The notes under the pieces are model-generated. The model had not been told where the DNA came from and made no database searches. It saw only the letters and a list, made by a program, of their open reading frames with translations. Below are positions 20,808 to 63,389 of a stretch of 64,000 nucleotides of DNA, one piece after another (within the stretch, counting starts at the first letter, position 1; each line of letters begins with the position of its first letter). Where the stretch lies: assembly GCA_973895155.1 (NCBI GenBank), contig OZ316894.1, positions 12,874,828-12,938,827 on the forward strand, given 5' to 3'. The DNA is from Marsupella aquatica (Eukaryota > Plantae > Marchantiophyta). Made by a program: the position numbers and the translations under genes.

Positions 20808-20887
20808 GGCACTCATTTTGCCTTACGAGTGGAGCCGTGTAGTGAGCTAATAACCTTTGATTTTGTACTCGACGTGTAGGAAGGGGC

Positions 20888-23800
20888 ATGCCCCTTACCC
20901 GGTCACGTTCTGCGTATTTACAACAACCAGACAGAGCATCAAGTTTGGAAGGGAATACCGCATCCGGCAGAGCGGGGAGCTCGGCTTCCCAAGCAGGATC
21001 GCGTGTTGTGATGGGTACCCAAGCACCAACGGCGGGAGGAACTCCACCAGTTCCACCAGTCCCGCAGGTACCAGGTGCGTTGCGGCCCCCTACGGCTCAG
21101 AACGTGTCACAGCGATCCCGGTTTCACTATCGACCCTTTAAGGGACGACCCACGGACGACCCTGATGAATGGATAGCTGAGTTCGAGGCCACGGCCAAGG
21201 CGAATGGCAAGGAAGCCATTAAGCTAACCATTCTTCCAGGCGTGCTACGAGGAGAAGCGCGCCCGTGGTATAACTTACAACCCCCTGGTTTCACATGGGG
21301 CCAGTTCCAGACGGCGTTCTTGCAAGAATTTAGGCCCGTGGGGATCGAATCTCGGGCCCTGTCAAAAATCGGACGAATGCAGATGGGTAAGCATGACTCA
21401 CTTCGCAAATTTCTGCAGCGATTCCAGAAGGTTGCCGCCAAGATTCGGCCTAAGCCAGATGACTCTCTGCTGAGGAAATGGTTCGTCAACGCGCTACCCC
21501 AGAGGATGGCGTTCTCAGTGCTAGAAAAGAAGACCACCACGCTACAACAAGCAATTGATAGTGCCGAATCCTTCAGGAAATCGCACTACGCCTCTCAGCT
21601 TAATAGGAGGACCAAGCATAAAAAGAGCAGGAGGTATCATACCTTCAGCGACTCCGACTCTGAGTACGACGAGAAGAAAAGGAAGAAGAAATGATGACAT
21701 AAGAAAAAGGGTCGGACAAGCTCTTCGTCAGACTCTGATTCAGAGTCTAGTGATTCCTTGTCCAGTAGCCCGACGTCAACTGGCTCATCCTCCAGCGAGA
21801 CCGAGTCAGAGTCTCGTAACCATAGAAGAAAGAAGGGATCACGGTCAGATACGGGCAAACATAAACCGCGAGCCAAGGTCGTCACCGCGGACCCCAAGGC
21901 CGCTGAGGTAGAAAAGCTGAATGAAATCACAGACCGGCTGAAAGCACTATCGGTGCACTTGGCGGAGAAACCTCCTGACAAGAAGAAACCACCGGAAATC
22001 TGAGCGCATGCTTGGTGCTCCAAGTGTTATCAGTCGGGACATGTGGTGCAAGAATGTCCAAGATGGAACACACGTGTGCACCAGATAGAGTTGGAGCCTG
22101 GACAGTCCGAGCCAGAGGGATGCACGATGGAGTACTTCTTCGAGGATCCAGGTGAGGCGGTGTTCCAGATGAGTATGACGGGACCTCGCACCCTAAGCGG
22201 CCACAATCCAGGGTTCCATACCCCTTATCCATATCCGGTGAATGGGCGTGGCCCCCAGATGGTCAGCAATCCAAGTATACCCCCTAAACCCGGCGTTTGG
22301 CGGACCCCGGTTTGTTATAATTGCGAGAAACCCGGTCACTTTGCCCGAGAGTGCACGGAGCAAAGGAAGCAAGGGGATGGGAGAGCGATTCCATTGTGCC
22401 AGGTCTGTCGAACCGAAGCACATTCCACGTCAAACTGCCCCTTGGTGCTAGCCACGAAGGCCGGCGCCGTCAGAGCTGCTCAACCTGCGGCCCCACCAAT
22501 TACGGATGCAGTAGTACAAATGGTAACAATGGAATGGCAGGACAACTCCACCGAGTGGATCGACCTCATAGAAGCAGTCGAGCAAACAGGAATGCACACG
22601 AACGACGAGTGCTACCGCGTTTCTACCCGTTCATCCCGCAAGAAGGACAAGTACAAAGAACGAGCTCTGAAGGACGCCAAGCAGAAAGAGGCGGTCGCGG
22701 ATAAGAATAGTCCGATGGAACCAGACGAGCAGGAAGACTACCAGCGGGATAACCCAAAGTTATTCTACCCGCGAGTAGAGGAACTGGTCAAAAAGCAATT
22801 GGAAGCCTACGAGGCCCAAGAGCACGAAAAAGCCATTAGGAAGGATATTGCCGATGCTAAGGCGGCCGAAGAAGCCGAAGAAGCTAAGACTGCCTTGCAA
22901 GCTGAAGTCAAGGGAGCAGAAGCATTAAAATCTGTGACACCACCGTCTGACCAATACGACATCAAAAAGGATGTTCAAAATTGTGCAGCCACGGCCACTG
23001 TCGGACAACTATTGCAGGATAACCCGAAGTATCGGCAACAACTCAAGGAGATGCTGATAGGGAAGAGGAGGCGACGGCTACCTCGGGTAAGCACCTTAGC
23101 CGACTGTATGATGATTTACCAGGACTTAGGAGCGCCGGAAGTCTCTATCGAGATAGCGGGCTGTACTGTTCGGTTTGTACCGGTAGATGGCGGGTCCGGT
23201 GTAAACATCATGACGGAGGACACTTCCGTAAGGTTGGGATATACGTCTTATCAACCCACGGCGCGCGCCATTCGGTTAGCAAACGGCGCCAGGATCATGC
23301 CACTAGGGACGTTAACCAAGATATCCACGTGGATTGGAGGCCTCGAGTTTTTTCTAAATTACCTGGTGATGCGACCAGTCCGACCCTCTTCTTATCCAGT
23401 ACTGTTGGGCAGACCCTGGTTATACGGTGCCCGAGTCGTTACCGACTGGGGAAGGAAGGAATTACGATTCGGTAACCCAACTACGACGGTGTCATGGAAG
23501 GAAGAAGACTATCAGGGTGAAACGCCCCAGGGACCCGAAGAATATGACTCGGAGGAGGAAATCTCAGAAGATGAGGTAAATATGGTGGAGTTAATCTCTC
23601 GGCTGGATGAAGAGGAAGTCTTCGGGGTAAGTGCCGTCCGAGAAGCCCATATTCTGAACCAGCCCGGACCAGCGGCCCAAATCGAAACACCAGGGAGACC
23701 AGTAAGAGATGATGCGGCAACGGGCAAAGAATTCCCCGGAATAGTGAGCCCTACGAAGGCAGTTGGCCGGCTTCCCTTGCCAGGTATACCCGAGGAAAAC

Positions 23801-24956
23801 GCTACTCAGACCGCCACTCCTCCCACAAAAAAGAAAGTTACATGGAGCCCCGAGATTCCGTCCGTAATAGAGGAACCCAAGGAGCTCCCAAAGGAGCAGC
23901 CGACAGTCTGGAAACCTGTGGCCTACGATGGCACCAGACTAGAGGAATTGGAGGCTCATCTTGACCAGGCCACCAGATACCATGTGGATGTAATCCGCAA
24001 GGAACACTATAGCAAATACACCACAAAGAGGGAGAGAACATTCAACGTTGGTTATGGCCTACGAGCGCCAGAGGAAAAGGCCATCCAAGAACTCCTATCG
24101 GAATATGAGGACGTCTTCGCATGGAGTCACCGAGACTTAACCGGGATTTCATCGGCCTACGGCGAACACGTCATTGATCTAAACTTGGGTGCTCATGCCG
24201 TCCGAGAGAGACAACGAAGACTAAACCCAAGACATTCCATCTTGGTAAAGGAGGAGTTAGATCAACTGATCGCGGCGGACATAATCTACCCCGTCTTATC
24301 TAGCGAATGGGTGTCCTCCATTGTGGTGGTTCCTAAGAAGGTAGGGCCTGATGGTAAACCCAAAATTTGAATATGCCAAGACTATCGGAAGCTCAACGAC
24401 GCTACTTGGAAAGACCCCGCTTCCCTACACGGATATGGTCCTTGACATGGTAGCCCGAAATGAGGTGTACACGTTCCTAGATGGATATTCGGGTTATAAC
24501 CAGATTTGGATCAGATTGTCGGACCAGCTCAAAACCACGTTCATAACGGAGTGGGGAACCTACGCGTTCAGGCGGATGCCCTTTGGCTTATGCAATGCCC
24601 CGGCTATGTTCCGACGAATCATTATGAACATTTTTCATGACTTCTTACAAGAATTTTTGGAGGTATTCATAGACGATTTTGCCATCTTTGGAACAATCGC
24701 CCAACACCCAGAACACCTGAGGCGGACTTTGGAGCGGTGCTGAGAAGTACGGTTGAAATTACACCTGAGTAAGTGCTTCTTCGGGGTTATGGAAGGAGTG
24801 CTACTAGGACACCGAGTATCCAAACGAGGGATCGAGGTGGACCAAGAAAAGGTGGCCGCGTGGATGAATGTTCCTTACCCAGCGGACCAGAAGGCGGTGC
24901 GATCCTTCTTAGGCTGCGTAGGGTACTACCGACGATTCATTCAGGATTTTGCCAAA
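20888..24956 (+). pseudogene. gag-pol polyprotein with premature stops and a frameshift
   Basis: Retrotrans_gag (FKGRPTDDPDEWI...LRGEARPWY...W.QF..AFLQEF); three CCHC knuckles (CSKCYQSGHVVQEC, CYNCEKPGHFAREC, CQVCRTEAHSTSNC); protease VDGGSG...LLGRPWL; RT DYRKLN, FLDGYSGYNQI, MPFGLCNAP, FIDD. In-frame TGA stops at 21692, 22001, 24368 and 24741. Confidence 0.92.
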
Positions 24957-48300: not shown

Positions 48301-50385
48301 CAACGTGCTGCTTTCGCTCAACCACCTATTGGTGTTCGCAAGGTGTATTTGACTTGGGGTTGCGTTCCCTTCTTTCTTGGTTTAGACGATTAAGTCATTG
48401 ATATTAACATGACTGTTGATTCTGTGGCAGGTTGTGCTGGCCACGAATATTGCAGAGACTAGTGTGACAATTGATGATGTAGTTTATGTCGTTGACTGTG
48501 GGAAAATCAAAGAGAAACAATTTGATGCATCACGGAATATGACTACAATGCGCGTCCAAGTATGCACTTTCAATTGCCGCAGTGATTTACTTCTAGGTTC
48601 AGGGCAGTTCTTTCTGCAATCTTGTGCAAAGGGTCTCAATACAATTAACTTTAAGAGGTTATGTTGATTTTACTCTGAGCATGTTAAACAATTGCAGTGG
48701 ACTTCACAAGCAAGTGCTCTGCAACGACAGGGTCGGGCAGGTCGTGTTCAACCCGGTTTTTGTTTTCGCCTCTACACTTGTGCCGTAAGTTGTTTCTATG
48801 AAGGTTTTCTGCATGTTTTGGATCAAATTTACATGAAAGCGTTCGAGCCGAATGTCCTGTCACTTTGTGATTTGTTCTACAGGTGACTTCTTTTCGTTCT
48901 TTGATAAGAAATCTCAATGCAGACACATCAAGCAATGCTGGAACATCAGATTCCGGAGATGCAGCGAGTGCCACTTGAGGAGCTTTGCCTGCAAATCAAA
49001 GCAATAGCAACACCGAGTTTGGTAATTATTCTTTCTCTTTCGTGCCATCTTTGTTAATGACAATCTAAATCTTTCGGAAAATGTTTTTGGGAATTTATTC
49101 ACCCGAAGTATCCTAAAGCTAGGATTGAGATGGACAATTGAATGGTAGGGAATGTACCTTTAGACTATTTTGATCGTTGCATTTACCTTACAATTGGCAC
49201 TCTCGGCATGGTGTGGAGCAGGTTACTAGTGCTGTTTCAGTGACAAGCTGTGATCTCTTGTATAAAACTAAGGATAAAGAATATAGGTATGTCAGTACAG
49301 GTATGAGTGACATTGCTACTTTCCTATCAAAAGCTATGCAGCCCCCCAAAGGTGCTGCAGTTCATGCTGCCATTAAAGTACTGCAACAACTAGGTGCCAT
49401 TGATGAACTCCAAAATTTGACGAATCTCGGCAAAACGCTGGCAAAGCTGACTGTTCATCCTCGGTTTGGAAAGATGTTGGTTTTTGGGGCACTGTTGGGT
49501 TGCCTAGACCCTTTGCTGACTATTGCAGCTGCTGCGTGCTTTCGGGATCCATTTGTTGCTCCTGTGGCAAGGAGAGAGGAAGCTGATAGAATTCGGGAGA
49601 GCTTCGCTGTGGGCCCTGCTTATGGAAGTGATCAACTTGTGGTAGTTGTGGCCTTCGAGCAATGGTTGGCAGCTCATTCGGTTGGGCAAGGATCCTCGTT
49701 TTGTGAAGCAAATTTTCTTGCTCCTATGACTATGAGGCTCATAGCAGGTATGCGGAAGCAGTTTGAGAGAACTTTGGCTGAAGCGGGTCTTTTTGAACCA
49801 TGGGTAACGATTACCAATGCTGCTGTGGGTGCACATGTGGCAAGATCACTGCTGACAGCTGGACTCTATCCTAATATTGCACGCTCGGAATTGTGCCGGG
49901 AGTCTAAAGGTACGAAGAATGGTACCAAACATGCTTACCGGTGGCGCTTGGGATTCCGAGTTCACAATGGGCGGGTTTTTATCCACCCCACGTCCGTTGT
50001 TTGTGAGAAACAGCTAAACCCAAACTTTCAGTACTATGTAGTCTTTCAAGAGAAAATGCAGACTAGTCAGGTTTTTGTGAGGGGATGTACTCTCCTTCCC
50101 ACCTTGGCAGTGGTCCTCTTAGGTTGGAACGTACATGTGTGCCAAGATACTGGGCCATCTGTATTGAATGGTGACTGGATACTTTTGGAGGTGGAAGGGT
50201 GGCTAAAGTTCCACATTGATAGGAGAGCTGGCCTACTGTTACTGCAGCTCCGGCATGCATTTGACGCAGTTTTGGCTCGTTGGGTAAGTGGTAGTACCCG
50301 TACAGAAGCAGAGCGTTGTGTTGTGGAATGCGTTGTGGCCCTACTACATGCAACTTGTCATGACATGCTTGTCGGCTCCATTTGA
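36396..50385 (+). CDS. DEAH/RHA-family RNA helicase with two N-terminal dsRNA-binding domains (DHX9/DHX30-like)
   Basis: Exons 36396-36626, 37815-37904, 38081-38251, 38598-38819, 39412-39810, 40235-40329, 40903-41044, 47444-47610, 47762-48002, 48199-48342, 48431-48559, 48698-48784, 48923-49021 and ~49222-50385. Motifs: [56 protein letters not shown]2 and OB-fold (FIHPTSV). dsRBD ends [14 protein letters not shown] and [13 protein letters not shown]. Confidence 0.9.
41200..46560 (-). mobile_element. Highly degraded L1-like LINE in the 6.4-kb helicase intron (41045-47443)
   Basis: Only faint minus-strand traces: AAGP near 44110 (cf. KAPGPDG), KGCL near 43415 (cf. RQGCPL), a KGG-like stretch near 42605 and a Cys/Trp-rich end near 41900, in L1 ORF2 order. 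Boundaries are approximate. Confidence 0.45.
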
Positions 50386-52617
50386 TATCTCCTAGCGATA
50401 AGTTTTTGCGAATTGACTCAGTTTTTAATGGAACCTTAGAGAGAGACAAATGCAGTTGTACATGGTGTACTATTGTAGATACCGGCACATTGCCAAAGAT
50501 TTGATGCGATAGTTTTGTCAAAACCTCTTAAATAATCTTGTTGTTCACCTGGTTCCCTGATGAAATGTGCTGTATTCATGGATCTGCCAAAAGAAGTTGT
50601 GCAGCAGTCCAACAATTTGGAGTGGCCACGAGGCTGAAGCAGGAACGCGTGTCTTCTTTGTGCTGATAGTTTAGTGAAGTCAATTTTGTTTAGAATCTGG
50701 GAAGTGCGTATTACACTACATAGACTCGCCTATGTATGTGAAGACGTTATCAGCACAAAGATATGGCAGGTAATTAACAATGAGTGCATATAATGCAGTT
50801 TATCGGTATGTTGATGGATACGCTCCAAATCAGGAATATAACGAGATGTATTCCACTATGTGGCAGACGTTCATTCTCTTATACGGTCCAAAATCGATAT
50901 CTTTGATCATTACGGTGTGGAGCTTGAAGGCTAGACTACGGCATGTGGCTCAGCTGGAATTGATCGTGTACCACTGAGTCAGGTTGGATATATACTGAAG
51001 AACTTAAAAGCAGAAGGAAGGTTAGAGCGGGGAAAACATAGTGTCATCCATTTTCCCCGCATACGCACTGCTAAAACTCGAATTTTAAGAGCATGAGTAG
51101 GAAAACAATGAATGTAAGCTTCGTTGTAGGCATTTTGTGCTGTGGATCTGAGAGTCAGCAAGGATATGACCATTGCAAGTTAAAAGAGACCCTTCGAGGA
51201 GAGTGACTACAAATGCGTAAGAGATAGTAACTTGAGATAGGATACGAGTGGAAAGTTAGATCAGAGGGCTCTCTTGAAGAGTATACAGATAAGTGAGACA
51301 CCATGTCTCGTCCTGAAAAGGAAAGTCAACAGTCTGCTGAGCTACTCAGTCCAATCTCAGACAAGGAAAATGCTCTGATCCTTTCCAAGATGTTCTGTCA
51401 TCCAAGAGGACCCTGTATTAGTCACGAGTCAAAATCTGCAAATCCTGACGGCGAATACTTTCTACAGACCTCTTCAGAAAGAAATGTTCCCAGCTCTGAA
51501 GAGAATCGCAAGTTTGCTTAGTCTCAAATGAGGTCACGGAAGCTAAGTTTAGGAGTGGGTTCCTAAGCTCTTTTGTTAAATTTCTGAGTTGTAGGTGTTG
51601 AGACTCCCAGTTTCCATCACAACCCTTCACTTATGAAGTTTTTCAAAGCTGTAGTAATCCCAGCATTGGCTACTCGATAGAGTGGACATCATTGTCATGA
51701 CCTTTTTTACGGGCCCTCACAGTCCTACTTGTGGCTTGGATTGCAAAGTGGTTTCAGAGAGTTTGAGCCGTGGAAGAATTTTCTTGCACCATTCTGGCTT
51801 GAAGAACAACCCATAAGATAACTAAGATTGTACCATTTGAATGCTGCTTCGATAGTAAACGAATGAGGGTATGACTACCATGTGAGGAAACAGGAAAAAA
51901 TTTGCTCGTAACAGTAATTTTTTGCTGTTACGAGTAAAAAAATTCCTTGTAATGGGTGATTTTTTCATCATACCAAGGTTTGGACTTCTTGGCCGCTAGT
52001 AACAGCAAGCCTTGCTAGCAAAAACCCATCCAACAGTCTGTTCGTATTTTAATGACTAATGTTTCTTTAAGAAACCTTTCGAGTGAAGTAACTTTTTTTA
52101 AAAACAATTCGGACAATCCAAAATAGATATAAAGATCACCACCGAAGCACTTGGCAAGCAGTTTTACTTGCAATTTAAATGATGGGCCTGGAGATTGGGA
52201 GTCATCAGTATCTCAGATAAACATACAAAATTGGCACCATAACCAACTTACAAGGTTGACAGTGATTTCAGGGAGACTTGCCAACTGTAAAAAAAAGCCA
52301 AGTCTGTAAGCCATGATATTCGACCTTATCAGGGTATGTGACTGTGTCACTGAAAGTTTTCTTAGTGAGTACCAAACCAGGGTCCAAAACATCAACCTAC
52401 AAACATTTTCAAAAATATAGCTAGCGACCTCGCTAGCAAAACCAATCAACCAATGTCTGGTGTTTTATAAATAAATTAAAGGGCACTTCATATGGAGTGT
52501 AAATATCATCTCTCCCTACCAACACACAAAAACGTCTACTCCCAACAGTACTTACATATATATTAAAAACCAATGAAAACCTTATTAAAACCAAACCTCA
52601 CTCTAAGGTGGACAATA

Positions 52618-55600
52618 TCAAGCCTCAACTCCCCTTTGGATCAGATCGGAAACTTCAGCGACAGTTAAAATAGGCTGCTTGACTACATCCGAAGTCTCTA
52701 GGTTCAAATGGTAAACATTCTTGTAAACCCAAAGAATATGTTTGCAAGACATGTAAGGCTTTCCATGTGAATGCCGCTTATAGAAATCCTCACAGGAGCA
52801 ACATGGGAAGACGCACAACTGAATCCAATATTTACTAGATTTACTAGGGTTGTTTTCATGCGTCGCAATCAAAAACTGTCTTCCCCATCCGTTTCCTTGG
52901 ATGATCTTTTCACAAGCCACAATCCTCATTTGCTCTTCATTTGCAGACCGAATCCTTTTAACAAGTTCTGCAGTGAAGTTGAAACGTTGACGAGCACCCT
53001 TCCCATTTCGTGTCCTCAGTCGTCTATTCAAATAGTTTACATCAAACTTTTCTGGAAAAGAGTTAACGTCAATTTGAAGTTCCACGCGACCTGGAGGAGC
53101 AACACTGCCATCTGGTTTGCCATCTGGTTCGCAATCCATGTAATATAGACCATCAATCTGAAAACCCAAGCCAATCAAGAAGCTGATTTCAGGAGGAGTT
53201 AAGTCTGTCCCTCGAAGAACTTTTAGAGACGAGGGTACTAAAGGAAGTCGGGCAATTGACTTGCGACCCCTGGTCTTGTGGCAGACATTGTTTGGGCAGA
53301 AGTATAAGAGTTGAGGATGTGGTAAGTCATCCTCAAACCATGGATTGCAACCCCAACCACACCGCAAGACCGAGTATGATAACCTACTTCCTTGATTAAG
53401 TTTCGACACTCATCTCTTCCATAAATGGTCCGATCCATAGACCCATTGCACACTGGACCATTTCCTTTCCCGCACCGCCTTAAGTGCCAAGTACCAAATG
53501 GCACATCAACTTCATTTACCGCAGGTATTCTCCTCGGTGAAACATAAACTGGTTCCTCTGGACAAACAGGAGATACATCTCGTTGTGGCAATGGTTTAGG
53601 AATTTCCAAAGTGTCATCTCCTGAGCTCTCAGTGTCATTCCCTTCATTATCGGAAAGAAGAATCATGACGGATGGATTTGGACAACTGGAGAATGTTGAA
53701 GGATGGAGTATGCCGGAAGTTTCCTTCAACTCATCGCTCTCTTCCACAACATTGACACTCCAGAAATCAGAATATAAATTTCTTGGATTTACGCCTCTTG
53801 TCACTGCCTCCGTCTGCATCACCTTATCATGTCGATGAGAGTTTTCAGCACCAACTCTAGCCGAAGCTTGGCCTTTTTGTTTTCCAGACTTTGTGCACAG
53901 ATCTCCATGAAGTGGTTGAGTGTGATGGTAATCATATTTTGGAGATGATTCAAGCAGAAGATTGGTTGCTTTCTCAAAAGCATCAAGGGATCCTAGTGTA
54001 TCTGCATTCCTATATGCAAGTTCAAATATGGTAGGTCCATGTCCCCTGTGGCATCCTTCAATGTATGCAGCAAAGGCAGCGATCTGCCCACCAGCATGAT
54101 TTTGATCAAGCTCACAAGCTTCAAATAGTCCAATCTTCTTCTTCATTTGACAAGCTCTCATTGAACCATATACAGATTTGGCTCCAGTACAATTTGGCAT
54201 CAATGCTGACTCCTTTGCTGTTTGAGTCTGAAGTCCAGCCAAAAACAAACACAATCATTGGGAGGCACATACTTGATTTCAAGATTGCATTCATACAAGG
54301 AAAGAATGCTAGCGACATCGCTAGCCAAAAAAGATGAGTTTACTTACCAGTCTGAAGAAGTTTCCCCACTGTCGTCATCGGACAACCCACCAAGCAATCC
54401 AGCCTTGCAAAGATCTCAATTTCCTAGGGTGACAATTTCCACACTTCCACCACTCTTGAATATCGTTAGCCACCCTGTAAGCTTGAACATATGTGGCTGC
54501 ATTCCTAAATTTCTCCCACATTTGGTAATGTTTCGAGTGTTTCCCTTCACAAATTCCCTCCACAGTATGACGTCTTAGTGACTGCGAGAAATGGAATGCA
54601 TCACTATGTTCTTTCTCAGGGAGACAAACACCATCAAAGAAAACATTTCTCAGAGCGATCCATCCAGCTTCAGCATTGTCAGCCATAAAACCAGCTATGT
54701 TTACATTGGAAATACCATTCTCAGCAGCAACTTCCAACATTAAACGCCATGTAGTTTCCAGTGACTCAACATCCTTGGCTTTCAATTCACAAGTGAAGAT
54801 AGTACAAAGAGCGCGATAAGTGTGATCGTATACATGAGCACTAAAAGTTAACCAACCAGTAGTTATTCTGTGCATCACATCAAAACTCACCCAAGCTCCC
54901 ACTAAAGTTCCACCTTTTTGCATCCGATTGAGAATGTCAACTCCAGAACCGGGACCTTTGGTACTCATCTTGAATACATGAGCTCGAATGGACTTGCCAG
55001 CCTGGCCAGGGAATAGGACCCTGTAGAAATGGAAATCTCACGCGCATTTGCATGTCACGAAGCGAATCCAACTCACCTTTCTTGGGGTTCCCAATTTTAA
55101 CGCTCCGGAAAATTGCATGGAATTTTGCCGGCGAGGACACAACTTTCATCGAGTTCCACAATTCCACCTCCTCTTCTTTTGAAAGATCATGACATGCCTC
55201 AGGATGGAGAAGAGATATCAATGTACCTATTGAAATATTCTTCACACGAGAAGGGGTTGCCAAGGGATGAGCTAACTGAATGCCTTGAATAACATCTTCC
55301 GCTTTTTTTTTGCAACTCGACACTTCCCCGTTCGGATCGGATGATCATGAACAATATGCACTGCGAGTCTAGACATGTGTTTTGAGTCATGAGAGTCCAA
55401 AGTTGGCTTTGCATAAACATAAAACATCATTGCTGGACAAGGCCTGACACAATAAGGTCTCTCATCACAAAAGCCACAAACCAAACCTCATTCCAAAACC
55501 AGGTTTCCCGGCTGGAAGACATCGGTCATTAGTGATCTTCCAGGAAATGTCGCTTCATTCCTCATTCCTGACTCCTTGAACCTTGAACAATTCAAATTTT

Positions 55601-56378
55601 GACACTGCACAACACCACTGCAACGGACCTTGAAAACAGACCAGTGATTACGTGGCTTCAGGTTAGCCGAAGTAGTGACCAATCGGGTCCAAGGGTAGCC
55701 ATCATTGTCGCGGTCCATGTCGAGAAGCCCTTGATCGCGACCAAATCTTGACTCCACCGGAGGAAGCTCATATACCATGTCTCCATTGTAACTTGTCGGA
55801 AGACGATCAACTTGGACATCAACCCACGAGACATCTCTTCTAAATCTTGCCAGCTCACTTGCCCCATTAATGCTCAAAAACGCTTCAAGGGCACCAATTC
55901 TGTAGACTTTCTGAAAAAGATGGCATCCCGAAGCACTTGGAAGAGGAGTATCTACTTTCAATTCTGTAGAACAACTTCCAAAAGCAGAATTAGTACCCTC
56001 AAGAGTGGTAAACCCACAACCAAAGGCCTGGACATTCGTTCCTCTCCCCGGGGGAGAGTCCAGGTCTACAAGCACTTTTCCCCGAGGATTCTGAAAAGGC
56101 TCTGGAAAATCATCTTTGCCTGACAAAACCTCAACCACGTCTCCGGAAGCAACCTCCCAAACTCTTGCACCATGTAGAGTTCTTGAAATAAATTCATCCT
56201 TCCTTGATCCATGAAGTGAAACAAGAAAGAACAACCTCAAAATGAAATCACAGTTATTGAGCCCAAATCTTGTCAAAAGAAAGGCCTCGGTCACATTAGT
56301 GATCTTTCTCATAGATGAAACTTCAAGAGTAACAATGTCTCCAGTGCTCCGACGCCAGAAGATGATGCTCGGAGCCAT
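52618..56378 (-). pseudogene. Mutator-like DDE transposase with N-terminal GCM-like Zn domain and C-terminal SWIM finger; frameshifts and stops
   Basis: GCM-like: DGYPW...CSGVVQCQNLNC...CGFC...PCP...HDHP. Catalytic core: WVSFDVMH, GFMADNA, AFHF, with the expected E position reading GAKS. SWIM: CSCEDF...CKHILWVY. Intron ~54347-54231. Confidence 0.8.
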
Positions 56379-57777
56379 CAAATGAGGACCAAGACAAGGA
56401 TCCAAACACAAACATCATGGATGAATATATAGAATAACATTACCTAGGACAATAAAGTTTAGAATAAAAAGGACGTCCATTTTAACATTGCATATACGAC
56501 AAAACTTCAACGGCTCTAATACCTTCAAGAAATGAATTATTGCTAGCGATATTGCTGGCCTAAATTTGCTATCATAAAGAGGTCCTTATCATCCAAAGTT
56601 ATATCTGGTAATCTTCCAAAAATTGCCTATAATGTGGACAACAAGGATAGCTTGGGTTGTAGTAGGATGTTTACTGAACTTGAAGTGTACTTGGGGTATA
56701 CTATAAGGATTATTGAACTTGGAGCTTTGTGTTAAACAACAGTTTTTACTAGCAACCACGCTAGACATAATTTAGGTAACTTTTCTGTGTTTAAGGTAGA
56801 CTCTAATCTTCAACCATCTATATTTTAGTGATACTAAAATATGATTTCCACTCACAAATTGACATTAACAGAGTAGAGGATTCTAAGATGTCCCATAAAC
56901 TAAACCTCTGAGAAACCCTGAATTAGGCCAGCGATATCGCTAGCCTGAAGCACCAGAAATTTAGGGTAGACTATTATTTGGGTTTGGGGTTCAATTGAGG
57001 GATATAGAAACAAATATATGGGCTATTTGTATAGTTTACACATGAAACATTGGGCTATTAGTATAGTTGAAGTCTAGTTTGTTGACTGTTTGAAGAAGTT
57101 AGGAAAGAATTTAGGAGAGAATTAAGGGTTCATTTGAAATAACCCCACCTCACTTTTAACCTACCCCATTAGCAGTGATTTGGCCAGCGATGTCGCTGGC
57201 AAAAAACTGTCTAAATACTTGTCTCAAACAAAGTATGGAGTTTGTCCATTTTGGCCTCAACAAGACCCATAATCAGTCATCTAATGTCAAAATTATATTA
57301 CCGTTGGAAGGGTTAACTTCATTTTGAAGAGTAAATTTTATAAAAACTTTGGTTCATACTTCCATCGGCATATTTTGTTACTTTGGAGAATGGTTAGTTT
57401 CGACGGACACCCAACCCAAGTTGGTCAACTATAGAGTAATTGACTCCAACCGTTGGAGTCAAATGTACATTTCATCCGACCGAGTTGTCAGTAAGTAGTA
57501 ATTAGACTCCTTGTTAACATTAACTGATGCTTTGTTAACGTTAATTAGCACCGCTGGGATTAACATTTGTATAGCTCTCATTGACAGATCTTTGGCATGA
57601 AGGTGTTAAATACTGATATTCCCTGTCAATGTCAGATACACCGTAGATTGGGTTGCTTTGGATTTCCCCTGAAATCTTGCTTTGGATTCCTAACACATGT
57701 GACTTTGGATTCCTTTGCAAATAACTATACCAATTCCTTGCATTCCCTTCACGTGGTTCTCCTCTCTTTATCAGTCA

Positions 57778-60700
57778 ATGGCAACTTTTGCATCCCCTGA
57801 GTCTATTTCGTCTGTTGCCTCACAATCAGCTGCCTCTCAACGTCGAGAGACCAGGAGTTCTACGAGCCACAAAGCACTTGCTTTGGGGCTGAAGACTCCA
57901 AGGAGGCGAAAGCTTGTTGATCCAATGGATATTGTGCCGCCTTCGATGGATTTTGCCAAGTCAAAGCCTTTCTCAGTTGTCATTAACTGGCACCTTTACC
58001 AGTTTGGGCTGGACAAATTTGGGTATCCTCTTGTTCCCCCCCGAATTCCATTGTGTCGCATGCAGAACATGCAGCTTGTAAGGTCTCTTCAGACAGATTC
58101 GAATGCAATCGAGACTTTGAAGAATGAGTTCCGGGCTCAAGGGTACATTGAGGACGCGCCTCATTTTTATGTGCAAATGACAAATGAGAATGGGGACGTG
58201 CAGTTTCTGAATGACACAATTAGACAGAGCTGGGATCCAATGTGGTTGGCGCAGAATGAAGCTTTCGAGAGGGAGTGTGATTTGCATCCTGATTTTGCTG
58301 TGCTCAAGGATAAAATGTTTTGTGTATTTGATGGCAATCACCGTCTCTATTCGTGGAACCTACTTGCTGCTGAGAATCCTCACGATGTCAAAATATCATC
58401 CTCGAGTTGTCTCAAAGATATTCAAAGGAGAGAAATATACTTTCGTGCAGATTGAATCTGCGATGCGTGCTCTCAACCGGTGAGAAGATCTTTGACACAT
58501 TTGATGTTTTTGCTTCATTTTTGAGCATGATCTGTTCTTGCTATTTGCTGAATTCTATCCTGAATGGCAGGTTGACACAATGCCATATCAAAAATTTGTG
58601 GGTGCTCAAAGCTGATCGGGTCCATAAGATTTTGCGCACGGACCTCTCAGTTTACAAAGATTTAATTGATCCAGAGAATTTCAAGTTATTTCAGCAGAAG
58701 ATGCAAAATGTGAAGAAGCCATCGTGGTATTCGAAGCATATGACCTTAGATGCATGCATTTATATTCTTTCAGCTGCAAACATAGCTTTGCAAACTGCTG
58801 ACTTACTCAAGAAGTTTGCACTGAAGGAGGAACTTAGTGAACCTTTGTCCAAAGCTACAAAGGATATTGCAATTCGAGATATGATGAAGGAGCAACTCTC
58901 TGACTGGAATGTCAAAGTTCCAAAGTTTTCCCCGCTTCTGAATCCAGACTTTGGGGATTTCTTCAAGAAATGTGTTGAGATGCACAATTATTGTGAGAAA
59001 GAAAGGAAGGAAGCTCAGTGGACGGATGATAAGGGGAGAGGGAATGTTTTGTGTGGCCTTGATCGTGCAAGGCTTTTCACCGGGGTAACTTCTCTGAGTC
59101 CACAACTCCGTTGCACTCTTCTCGAAGCACAGTGCAGACCAGAGTTGCGTAAACAATATTTCCACCCATCTCAATTTTTGGATAGTGAGACCAAGCTCTG
59201 GTTGCATTGATGGGCAACCTGGGAACAGGTAGATTCCATTGCAAGGTGCTTATTAAGTGAAGCAATCTCTGAGATTATTCTCACTGTCCCTGAATGTAGA
59301 ATTCTTTCTTCCCCAGAGAATAGTCAGGCATCCCTCCTTGTTGAAATTGATGATGAGTTTGAGGATTTCCTGCAGCGGGTTAAGGTAAGGTTCTTTAAGA
59401 GCATCTGGAACCCGAAAGTTGGGGAAAAGATTGACATTGCTGCTTTTCGACAAAGGGCAAAAAGGTATGTTTACAGGTTTTTTGTTGATCGGGAGGTGGA
59501 AAATAGATCTTTTTGGTGGTGTTATCCGGCATGTTTCTCTCAATGGGCACAATATGCAAGAGATGATTCCGGTTGTGAGAAGTTTGGGGAGTACTCGATG
59601 TACCCTATTGAGGACATTGAACCCTTGCGGAAGATAAGTGAATGGGAGGTGCTGCATTGTCCCTGGTATTTAGATTTGGGGAATTGGTCACTAACATTTG
59701 ATGTGACAAAGAAAGTTGCGCTTCAAATTAAAGATCAAGTGGCTTGGTCCCATAAGTTTTTATTAGTGAATCTAAATTGTGCAACCCGGAAGTAGAAATT
59801 GCTGGCTATGTGTCGATGGAGCAGGCATGCCTCGGGGTGGCACCGACTGTTGATAGGAGCCGCCCTCGGAAATTGAAGAGGGATGTTGCCAAGGAGGTAT
59901 CAAAAGACGGCTCTATGCTTTCTGGAAAGAAAAGTAAGTATACTCTTATCTCTCCAAAGCTTACTTCTATTATCTCTCCCAAGCTGCTATTCTCATTAAG
60001 TTCATGACATATCCTTAGGCTCTTGGGTTGCTTTTTGTATCCAGAAAGGAGGGAGTCTTCGGGTTCCAAGAGTGTTCAGACTGTGACTAATGGTCGTCAA
60101 GAGGATCTTGTTGAGCCTGAGTCACCCGACTTTGAAATTGTGACTAAACCGGGAGGTGATAAGTTAGGGTCCCAAAGGCTGAAGAAGAAGAGAAAGGTTC
60201 AAGTGTTGTCAGATTCTGATGAGGAAGAAATTTCAATCCGAGAGGGTGTCACAAGGCTCTGTGGACTCCAGTTGGATGGAAGAAGACATTTCCTTGCAAA
60301 GAGTAATCTTAGTTTGACGGTTGACTCGATAAGTATGAAGAAGGTTTGACCTTCTTGGATGGGGGAGGGGGATCAATGGCTTTCGGAGATTTCAAGTTCT
60401 TCCAAACACCCGAATCCCTTAAAAATCAAGGGGAAGCCTTACACTGGGACCGGTGCCCATCTGGGGTTCATAGCGCTTCCGACTGGGCTGAGGCCTTGTG
60501 TTACTGATGTGGAAGTCCCCCAATGGAATGTCTGGGTTGAGAAGCTCCCTTACTATTTCTTTGGAGTGATGAGGCCCATGTTGTCTGATGATGGTTATGT
60601 GGCCGTTCTCCACAGTGGAGAATTTAACCACACAAAGCAAATTTTTGCTGCTGTTGAACAGAGGAACAAATTTAAACACCTTCGGAAGTACCATGTTTTA

Positions 60701-61363
60701 TTGGGGTCCCCAATGTGGATGCCAGACATGAACATTGAGGTGAGATTTGAGTGAAATTTTCAGGATTTAGTGTGTTGTTTTGACAGCGACCTCGCTGGCC
60801 TTCCTGGATTCATTAATTGATGTTTTTTTGTTCCTTTCCAGGTTTGCAACTTAAGCCTTGATGTCTTTTGTCGAGTTGAATTCAATGGGAAGATCCCAAA
60901 AGACCCAAAGTATGTCCCTCTGGCAACGTCTGAAGATGCATCACATAAGACGATGTTGAGTCTTTGTTATCCGAAAAGGGATACCAGGGCAGAGTTAGCT
61001 TTTTCCGGTCCTTGTCGGTTGTCTGTTGGATTCATGCAGGCTGTTATGGAGCTTCTCACAAAGCCTAGAGACATTGTGCTTGATTGGAATATTGGAGACG
61101 GTAGTTCATTTTCAGCTGGAGAACTCTCTGGGAGGTTCATTGTTGGGGTCGAGGATAGGGATGTTCTCCATGGTGCTGCAGAGAAGGCATTGAAGAGTGT
61201 TCTTGAGAGACACAAGAAAATTGAAGACCTTACTGAAACATTGGAGGAGTTCGATTCAGATGATGAATTTTCTCTTGCAGGATCAAAGAGTGGAAAAAAC
61301 AAAGATGGAGCTCCTAATGTTCCTGATGCAAAAGATGGCAATGATGAATTTGACCTGGAGTAA
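57778..61363 (+). pseudogene. ParB/Srx-like N-terminal domain fused to a C-terminal beta-class N4C/N6A DNA methyltransferase-like domain; 4 exons, disrupted
   Basis: Exons 57778-58479, 58571-59933, 60045-60739 and 60842-61363 (GT-AG). FCVFDGNHRL is the ParB GxxR motif. LGFIALPTG, MLSDDGYVAV and ELLTKPRDIVLDWNIGDGSSFSAGELSGRFIVGVE follow the IV...VI...X-I-II order of beta MTases. Frameshifts near 58390, 59460 and 59780; stops at 59208 and 60347. Confidence 0.72.
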
Positions 61364-63389
61364 TGTACTGATCCTCTCGCTTATACCAGATCCCTATGCT
61401 TTAATCAATTGGCTGGTGAAGCTTTCTATTGTCTTTTGATTGGATATTTCATTCATAGTCCTCTGATTGTTTTCCTGATTTCAGAGATACTCGTGTCGAC
61501 TGGTTTTCTGAAGAGAGATTTTGGCTTTGAAGGAAGATTGAAGAATCTTGCATTGTTTCTCCTCAGAAGACGTTTACTCTGCCTTGCTATGCAGAGAAGT
61601 CGGCAATTCAGTCGGATAATGCTTTTGTAGTCACCTGGGAAGGCAAAGGTCGTAGGTCACATCGTGGCGCCAGACGAAATTTATATTGCTTGCCTTTTGT
61701 TGACGATGAGGCATGCCTTGTTAAGCAATATGTTGATGAGTCTGCTGAGTCAACTGATCGGGATTTCAGCAGTGACCAGAGCAACACTAGTAGTAGGAAT
61801 GATATAGAGTCGGATGAAAGTCATTCAAGTGACTTCTGATTTTCTGAGGGAATAGAAGGATATCCCTGCACTGTTTACTCAAACTTACTGTCAGTTTTGA
61901 CAAAGTATTGGAGGCAGTACTTTTTTTGGAAATATGACCTTGAAACGGGTTTGAAATCTGAGTTCATTCATTCACTATGCCTTTTCATATCCCCCTGGTG
62001 TTTTACTAGCTTGTGTATATTCATATGGTTTGTAGTGATTGAAGGCTAGCGACCTCGCTAGACATAAAACTGAATGATCCCATTCTAGAAAAAAGATTCA
62101 TTTCTGTTGTAGAAATCTCACTATCCTCCCAATCTGCCACTCTGACCATTAGTTTTACCTTGCTAGCAAACATTAACCTTGCTGTCAATTTCTCCTGTTT
62201 CCTCACACCATACAAACCCCCAACGAATGAGAAGTTCAACATTGTTGGACAACTCTTCCAAGTTTGTGTATGACATATTTTGGGAGTGAGTGTACCGTCA
62301 CCACTCTGGACAGTGGCTCATGAAGTCTGCAGTCATTCTGAAATCAGTCTGAAAGCCCCCGGACACAATAATGTAATTATCAAGCTGAAGTTATTTTGCA
62401 CCCAATTACTTATGACTGAAAGATGAGAGGTCCTCCATGCAATCTTGTTTGATGAGGCCAAAAGGTATTTGTCTTGTGGACACACAGCCATAGGCCGCCA
62501 CTCATGTCTTTTGCACGCCATGCAGTCAAAACACATTGGATGTAATTGCATGTACACAAACCACATAGGAGTTTACAACTTCCAAGGGATGAAAGTCCAT
62601 GAGATATATGGTCATCCAACAAGGGGTAAATGGATGGCACCAACGGAGGATAGGGGCACACACCCTAACCCTAAACTATTGATGCTTGGGCAAATCAATT
62701 TGAAATGCAATAAAGATGCTCAGAATGCCAAGGAAGTGTTATGGACAGATGCGAAGGAGCTCTAGCCATCTACCCGGGGCTACTGGACAAGACAAAACAG
62801 ATGCATATTGTCTTCGTTGCATGAAAACAGAGCGGACCATATTAAGACTCCGGAGTTAAACAAACCTGCCAGGTGGATCCACATAGATTTGTAAACAAAC
62901 CTTGTTGTAGAAACTCTCTTCCAGTCATATACTTTGTGTAGTCTAAGTGCCTAGATTCATTACAAAGCAATAGTACAGCTGTCCATTAATGTGTCTTGAC
63001 AGGTGAAGTGCCCAATAAAGGCAACTCCCATTTCATTGTGTTGAATGTATGTGGCAATGTCGTCTCAAATTTCAACCTCCCCACTAATTGTAAAGCAGTC
63101 CATACAAATCTAGCACTTGGTCAATTAGTAATTATTGCAAAAACTGGGGGGTAGGTTATTTACCTGATAGATAGTATAGCACTAGGCCAATTTGTAATTA
63201 TTGCAGAAATTTGGGGGTAGGTTATTCGCTGATAGAAAGTATGCTCAATTTGGTCGATTCAGTTGGTTAACATTAGGAAGAGAGAGAGAACAGGAAAATG
63301 TTGTAATGGACAAATATCTCATATACCAGATGCAAACTGCTACAACTACAGCTGGGAAAGATACATAGCATCATATAAATGTGGACACA

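Follow-up and report, generated by a model that had tools for sequence, protein, structure and literature searches.

What does a plant transposon gain from a gene that joins a ParB-like domain to a DNA methyltransferase fold? This question is raised by a 64,000-nucleotide stretch of contig OZ316894.1 from the liverwort Marsupella aquatica, referred to here as the window, in which two divergent genes lie between terminal inverted repeats (TIRs). The element is a Mutator-like element (MULE), and the copy in the window is dead. It is best regarded as a decayed member of a multicopy two-gene family whose accessory protein, predicted to combine a ParB-type domain, a helical region and a probably dead methyltransferase, would bind palindromes within its own element and oppose silencing as VANC does. 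This reading is tentative and is given a probability of about 45%.

A multicopy two-gene Mutator-like element

The element spans 51867–62221 (10,355 bp), begins with GGG and ends with CCC. It is flanked by an exact 9-bp target duplication, AACGAATGA, at 51858–51866 and 62222–62230, the sole matching length when 5–12 bp were tested. The TIRs noticed in the initial annotation are imperfect, with 24 of 33 positions identical, and contain a perfect 14-bp core, GTGAGGAAACAGG. The annotation was correct that an element is present; the ends that it proposed, 51882 and 62206, were rejected as they mark this inner core, and were corrected by depth, flanks and the duplication. The left end was placed from contigs of four public sequencing runs aligned over 51835–51975. 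In these runs, repeat depth begins at 51865–51869, and the flanks of other copies diverge before 51867 in seven contigs (3, 3 and 1 in X1, X2 and X3, respectively), with further divergence before 51866 (2 + 2 contigs) and before 51863 (1 + 1 contigs). Among the 21 of 25 rows listed from the four-run mapping, none has a loose end at 51881–51882. Since contigs that share a loose-end place agree at 0.56–0.67, the left flanks differ between copies. Base-level contig mapping covered the left end; the right end was placed from the duplication and from the symmetry of the TIRs. The initial annotation had noted a target duplication, and one is present, but its earlier reading as the 5-bp ACCAT was rejected, given that ACCAT sits inside the element and contig flanks break at about 51867. 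A 3-bp CCA duplication was rejected by the same left-end mapping of other copies.

The transposase gene consists of two exons on the minus strand (56378–54348 and 54227–52618; about 1,210 codons) and the accessory gene of five exons on the plus strand (57778–61839; 1,211 codons), with all introns of the latter being GT-AG. The start codons (56378 on the minus strand, 57778 on the plus strand) are 1,399 bp apart, confirming the two divergent spliced genes and shared 1.4-kb spacer of the initial annotation. Eight transposase homologs were identified among 275 candidates, 43–71% identical over the core. Pfam named no family for this copy's transposase or its homologs, and there was no direct Pfam MULE match. 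For P0007, a homolog with 44% identity to this transposase over the core, the nearest clusters belong to the MULE clan (0.90–0.96), with a weak IS256 match (E-value 0.009). P0007 carries the D, D, CxxH and E residues together with SWIM-like motifs, and a SWIM profile gave a weak match to it alone (E-value 0.17). A cluster of seven Cys and three His is present in 9/9 transposases; while no Pfam GCM profile match was obtained, a GCM1-type finger with an inserted ribbon fits this pattern (PMC1702500). MULEs are described as having target duplications of 8–11 bp and TIRs of 14–500 bp (PMC6446971). Because it combines MULE-clan transposase motifs with a 9-bp duplication, the element is a MULE. P0007 and P0008 are more distant transposases (43–44% identical, 1,050 amino acids) without the intron that holds a palindrome in this element. 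A metagenome scan took 56 candidate stretches to one locus of 2,078 bp; the metagenome contig L001 has a related transposase, whose two longest exon matches to this one are 66–68% identical at the DNA level.

The features of the element are as follows:

51858–51866, plus strand: left target-site duplication AACGAATGA, an exact match to 62222–62230; the flanks of other copies diverge here
51867–51899, plus strand: left imperfect TIR, 33 bp, beginning with GGG, core at 51882–51895; 24 of 33 positions match the right end, and depth rises here
51892–51947, unstranded: subterminal hairpin-like inverted repeat with TTGCT half-site-like words; 26-nt arms, 77% complementary
52420–52437, unstranded: palindrome 1, with perfect arms, 3' of the transposase stop
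52618–54227, minus strand: transposase exon 2, with the third catalytic position, a linker and a SWIM-like CxC...CxH; frameshift near 53323
54228–54347, minus strand: transposase intron, GT-AG, 120 bp, with palindrome 2 inside (54308–54325); position shared by L001 and the ends of P0001–P0006
54348–56378, minus strand: transposase exon 1, with a GCM-like Cys/His cluster and a MULE-type D...D core; stops at 55488–55490 and 54375–54377, frameshifts near 55311 and 55020
56379–57777, unstranded: spacer between the divergent genes, 1.4 kb, with palindromes 3–6 (56542, 56748, 56927, 57183) from the site search
57778–58479, plus strand: accessory exon 1, ParB-like domain (DGNHR signature); frameshift near 58390, the extra base being absent in other copies
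58571–59933, plus strand: accessory exon 2, middle region, predicted to be largely helical, without a family match; stop at 59208–59210, frameshift near 59755
60045–60739, plus strand: accessory exon 3, linker and predicted catalytic half of a beta-class amino-methyltransferase fold; ALPT motif IV at 60473–60484, stop at 60347–60349
60740–60841, plus strand: accessory intron 3 with palindrome 7 (60782–60799) from the site search
60842–61359, plus strand: accessory exon 4, predicted S-adenosylmethionine (SAM)-binding half (motif I DWNIGDG, motif II acidic residue); Pfam N6_N4_Mtase E-value 0.0016, profile matches to M1.HpyAVI and CcrM
61485–61839, plus strand: accessory exon 5, LPxYAE and FVDDEA motifs and an acidic tail; stop at 61528–61530
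62045–62062, unstranded: palindrome 8, right subterminal region, from the site search
62189–62221, minus strand: right imperfect TIR, ending with CCC, from the TIR comparison
62222–62230, plus strand: right target-site duplication, an exact match to the left copy

The existence of other copies had been set beforehand as the test of the proposed transposon family. Part of the element is contained in five public sequencing runs from three studies, four of which were used for depth. In 4/4 runs, every one of the 28 inner bins, including those of the spacer, reaches at least five times the depth of the deeper flank bin, with a step at both ends of the element; depth here is summed contig depth and not copy number. 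Together with the differing left flanks, this supports a multicopy two-gene MULE family with other insertion sites, as opposed to a one-off capture within this host. Some contigs from other copies contain joints at which spacer sequence is missing or rearranged (56532–56927, 57488–58105, and 62067 to 56804). Two of these three joints start or end beside a palindrome; they are possibly deletion derivatives or diverged subfamilies.

As the initial annotation had stated, this copy is dead: it has five premature stops, five frameshifts and a Lys at the third catalytic position, where its relatives, L001 included, have Glu; in addition, D replaces the Cys of the CxxH motif. The frameshifts at 53323, 55020, 55311 and 58390 are absent from other contigs, and the stop at 54375 is a Trp codon in all covering contigs of other copies. 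The lesions are copy-specific where visible, and an intact copy likely exists elsewhere. Among the 40 best-supported differences between copies (1,811 further exist), 21 are coding, with 15 altering the protein and 6 synonymous, the kind of ratio that neutral decay would give.

The accessory protein and its lost catalytic motif

The second gene was initially read as a ParB-like domain joined to a DNA methyltransferase, and motifs, profiles and Foldseek support this composition. For the ParB-like exon, seven homologs of the same length were found among 73 candidates. The word DGNHR is present in this copy and in 7/7 close homologs, with DGNHQ in the Riccia sorocarpa protein P0110, and an upstream Arg and a downstream Asn are invariant around it. 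The ParB/Srx signature comprises a GxxR nucleotide-binding motif after a strand, an upstream Arg and a downstream Asn, and we take DGNHR with its flanking Arg and Asn to fit it. Language-model (Atlas) neighbours of the domain were DUF3723 (14%), ParB_N (11%) and DUF6551 (84%), at 0.89–0.91. From these motifs and neighbours, the N-terminal domain is likely of the ParB type, a moderately supported assignment. Structure prediction produced models with a mean predicted local distance difference test (pLDDT) of 47 in the first case and below 50 over much of the second, from an alignment that was poor in the middle region. A fold search with the low-confidence first model gave nothing above Z 3.1 and is evidence neither way, while VIA-align of the full model gave middling scores (best Z 8.2). 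There were no long relatives of the ParB-like exon among 703 candidates, tblastn of its homologs against plasmids and phages gave nothing below an E-value of 4, and a viral contig scan gave 30 pattern matches with no relative of the domain among them.

The middle region, predicted to be helical at low confidence (alignment depth 1), had no match in Pfam or PHROG; it aligns with that of P0110 at 28% identity over 369 columns (E-value 4e-31). P0110 (1,191 amino acids) matches the ParB-like, middle and methyltransferase-like parts in that order, and the fusion is thereby confirmed independently of our own gene model, since the whole domain order is shared. Exon 5 matches the C-termini of three of the six Riccia homologs tested, with a score reached by at most 3 of 300 shuffles. 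The LPxYAE and FVDDEA motifs (61576–61710, plus strand) are common to the Riccia homologs P0093, P0102, P0107 and P0110. The acidic FxDDEA word presumably resembles histone-binding motifs of chromatin factors and could be a link to chromatin.

An exhaustive search with the methyltransferase-like region returned 95 clusters (50% identity) at an E-value of 0.001 or below. Of ten that were looked up, seven are from Riccia sorocarpa and two from Calypogeia fissa, both liverworts, and one is unnamed. In Riccia sorocarpa, 10 or more named copies are spread over several scaffolds. In a 14-row tree of this domain, the Marsupella copy groups with the Calypogeia proteins with a support of 98/98.

A 16-sequence profile matches 5hek, 6pbd and 5hfj (E-values 8.5e-7 to 2.3e-6), including M1.HpyAVI and CcrM, and P0084 exceeds the Pfam N6_N4_Mtase cut-off (27.6 versus 26.7 bits). 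The catalytic half of P0110 was modelled with a pLDDT of 81–95 and matches CcrM, M.BceJIV and M1.HpyAVI; all nine Foldseek matches at an E-value of 0.001 or below are beta-class N6 DNA methyltransferases. By profile and by model, the predicted fold is that of a permuted beta-class N4/N6 methyltransferase in which the catalytic half precedes the SAM-binding half.

The position of motif IV in beta-class methyltransferases was used to fix its register in the family. P0082 served as the anchor, its Pfam match starting at model position 2, five residues before DPPT; a second anchor was the Asp ending strand 940–946 in the P0110 model. After six rows with gaps were dropped from the 58 aligned, 52 were counted, this copy included. 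The canonical (D/N/S)PP(Y/F/W) is found in 0/52, and none has an aromatic fourth residue. The catalytic Asp is kept in 9/52, the commonest words being ALPT (13), YLPT (5) and FLPT (4) and the nearest to canonical being a single DPPT; the clade of this element reads xLP(T/N). Motif I, complete in 45 of 56 rows, retains its Asp in 41/45 and its Gly residues in 36/45 and 42/45, and the acidic residue of motif II is present in 39/42. Because the catalytic motif is lost in 52/52 while the SAM-binding motifs persist, the accessory protein is probably a pseudo-methyltransferase, perhaps still able to bind SAM, and not a writer of N4-methylcytosine (4mC) or N6-methyladenine (6mA). The initial annotation had offered an active writer and a catalytically dead derivative as branches, and the latter is the one favored. 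A stepwise decay from DPPY is suggested by a tree whose rooting is unreliable (long outgroup branch). In the bdelloid enzyme N4CMT, changing SPPY to APPA is reported to abolish activity (PMC8885841), and inactive N6-methylase domains are reported in DIRS1 retrotransposons (PMC4738411).

Palindromic sites and the candidate role of the accessory protein

The palindrome array that had been described as element-specific consists of eight sites with the consensus GCTAGCG-N4-CGCTAGC (at most 3 mismatches over the 14 arm bases), and there are none elsewhere in the 64-kb window. Seven matches to AGCGANNTCGCT occur at no more than one mismatch, compared with 0.91 expected, and 0/100 shuffles reach this number. 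Although only 30% of the element is non-coding, 8/8 palindromes are in non-coding DNA (P of about 6e-5): one after the transposase stop, one in the transposase intron, four in the spacer, one in accessory intron 3 and one near the right end. L001 contains three palindromes, all in the same transposase intron (0 in 300 shuffles), and the best local match between its intron and the one examined here is the palindrome itself. That the site is kept in a transposase intron of so distant a relative speaks for selection for binding by a protein, whether the transposase or the accessory protein.

MULE transposases cut and paste by binding TIRs, and a dyad site is of the kind read by a dimer. In the proposed mechanism, the transposase would bind the TIRs and move the element, leaving 9-bp duplications. 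The accessory protein would dimerise on the candidate dyad sites in the non-coding DNA of the element, might then spread along it as a nucleotide-gated clamp and, while bound, would counter host silencing so that the element can still be transcribed, much as VANC acts on VANDAL elements. There are precedents for such sites, as VANC21 is reported to bind short motifs in the introns, intergenic and terminal non-coding regions of VANDAL21 (PMC5735166) and Plavaka elements are described with inverted-repeat arrays beside a ParB accessory gene (bioRxiv 2025.02.11.637652).

Several observations weigh against this proposal. The ParB assignment draws on motifs and on weak neighbours, and none of the profile searches was significant: the domain has no match in Pfam, NCBIfam or PDB sequences, and the one PHROG ParB-like match among 8 sequences is weak (E-value 0.27). 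No helix-turn-helix was detected in the accessory protein by family searches or in its low-confidence model (alignment depth 1). Many of the homologs are fragments and may derive from decayed copies. In the four runs, zero single contigs span both genes, and linkage of the transposase to the accessory gene is known from this host only. L001 holds transposase sequence only, which ties the palindrome to the transposase lineage and not to the accessory gene, and three of the four accessory-gene introns are without a palindrome. Lastly, TTGCT/AGCAA half-site-like words occur at 5 and 3 per 200 bp at the termini versus about 3 per kb elsewhere, and this enrichment sits where a transposase would bind.

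The last points lead to the main rival, in which the palindromes are internal transposase sites for synapsis or self-activation and the accessory protein serves a different purpose, for example shielding chromatin non-specifically or aiding integration as MURB does. It gains from the palindromes of the L001 transposase intron, from the half-site-like words at both ends and from the GCM-like cluster common to all nine transposases, and a MULE transposase alone is reported to activate cognate copies (bioRxiv 10.64898/2026.08.24.746577). Set against this, the palindrome bears no relation to the conserved TIR core GTGAGGAAACAGG, its full copies are found at distances of 150 bp to 5 kb from the ends, and dyad sites are described as a target type of the ParB family (bioRxiv 2025.02.11.637652). 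On balance, this explanation is rather unlikely, although less so than those that follow.

A bolder version of the anti-silencing proposal has a phage-derived ParB clamp loading at parS-like palindromes in a nucleotide-dependent manner and sliding over the 10 kb, with the dead methyltransferase fold covering or flipping bases to block the spread of 5-methylcytosine silencing. We consider this doubtful. If true, it would place a ParB-type sliding clamp at work in land-plant chromatin and would be the second known self-targeting anti-silencing chemistry after VANC.

Alternatively, the accessory protein could mark the DNA of its own element, either as a 4mC/6mA writer that is active through a non-canonical catalytic loop or as the inactive half of a two-subunit methyltransferase. 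The persisting SAM-binding motifs, the nine sequences with a catalytic Asp and the single DPPT would suit such an activity, as would the bacterial-type 4mC writer used by liverworts (bioRxiv 2021.02.12.428880) and an algal counterpart predicted to be active (PMC12477816). It is nonetheless improbable, with the aromatic stacking residue missing from 52/52 sequences, the Asp lost also from the clade of this element (98/98 support) and zero partner genes within the element. Slightly less probable still is passive cargo, captured once in the manner of a Pack-MULE fragment and doing nothing for the element: gene capture is frequent among MULEs (PMC6446971) and the linkage is limited to one host, but the domain recurs in the 95 clusters and in the Riccia copies across scaffolds, the whole gene is multicopy in this host, and its family-wide motif conservation implies selection.

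Some further features of the window lie outside the element. An 18-nt inverted repeat pair with 89% complementarity (51041–51058 and 62623–62640) brackets it in the flanks; without the element, the pair would be about 1.2 kb apart, and an older element may have left it where this one inserted. At 63111–63226 there is a pair of 50-nt direct repeats, separated by 66 bp and sharing 88% identity. A long exon of a DExH-type RNA helicase gene with HA2 and OB-fold domains (49174–50385, plus strand) ends about 1.5 kb to the left of the element, and a decayed Ty3/gypsy-type retrotransposon with gag, a zinc knuckle and an aspartyl protease is found at 20861–24370 (plus strand).

Relation to known transposons and significance

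The initial annotation did not recognise this architecture as a named family, a statement that holds in part, as counterparts are published for the algal elements Ectocarpus Sola1-1_Ec32 and Bostrychia Plavaka while no land-plant report was found in the literature consulted. In Sola1-1_Ec32, a gene for a 1,104-amino-acid protein with ParB-like and N4/N6 methyltransferase domains is described opposite the transposase, and its product has been suggested to represent a novel class of accessory proteins that modify their own element (PMC12477816). The two elements thus share one large protein of this composition (about 1,210 amino acids here) on the strand opposite the transposase, and the algal protein has likewise been proposed to bind, and there to modify, its own element. 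They differ in that Sola1-1_Ec32 has a Sola transposase, a 4-bp duplication and a brown algal host, compared with a MULE, a 9-bp duplication and a liverwort, and in that its methylase is predicted to be active whereas the catalytic motif is lost family-wide in the present case. The accessible description of Sola1-1_Ec32 mentions no palindromes, and the likeness to it is one of described architecture.

In the red algal Plavaka elements of Bostrychia, the accessory genes PAG2 and PAG3 are reported to encode ParB-oxygenase and methylase-SET proteins with inverted-repeat arrays proposed as ParB sites, and homologs of Plavaka accessory genes are reported on Mutator elements of Chondrus crispus (bioRxiv 2025.02.11.637652). 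ParB-like and N6-methylase accessory domains, giant DNA transposons and inverted repeats are common to both systems. As described, Plavaka differs in having two genes in place of one, with ParB fused to a 2-oxoglutarate oxygenase in the first and the methylase joined to SET in the other, and in having repeats in tandem arrays beside PAG3, in place of dispersed sites. Arabidopsis VANDAL/VANC offers a MULE with an accessory gene and element-specific non-coding motifs (PMC5735166). In its description these motifs are 8–9 bp, asymmetric, tandem and fast-changing, unlike the 18-bp dyad kept between distant elements. The likeness to VANC is one of design, and anti-silencing by the Marsupella protein is a proposal.

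With other MULEs, the element shares a MULE-clan DDE transposase, a 9-bp duplication, TIRs in the 14–500 bp range, a SWIM-like finger and an extra open reading frame; it departs from typical members in the missing direct Pfam MULE match, the short imperfect TIRs and the prokaryotic-type accessory gene. The methyltransferase-like part resembles beta-class amino-methyltransferases (CcrM, M1.HpyAVI, M.MboIIA, Marchantia DN4MT1, bdelloid N4CMT) in predicted fold, in the order of motif IV before motif I and in the SAM-binding motifs, and differs from them in having no (D/N/S)PP(Y/F/W), in its ParB-like fusion and in being borne by a transposon. Marchantia DN4MT1, which is described as keeping TSPPY (bioRxiv 2021.02.12.428880), is absent from the named matches. 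In the literature consulted, no land-plant case and no dead-methylase version was found; such families may already be recorded in Repbase, Dfam, the supplements of the preprints or the source behind the Chondrus report. The design itself was recently described in algal transposons, and what is new is the land-plant host, the probable pseudo-methyltransferase and a conserved candidate binding site.

The element extends the published accessory-gene class to land plants and provides a candidate target of 18 bp, conserved in distantly related elements. For this branch, the loss of the catalytic motif argues against a simple model in which the element marks its own DNA. Marchantia is a transformable liverwort model, which opens the question to direct testing. 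A protein that counters silencing at a short, defined sequence would also serve as a tool for epigenome editing.

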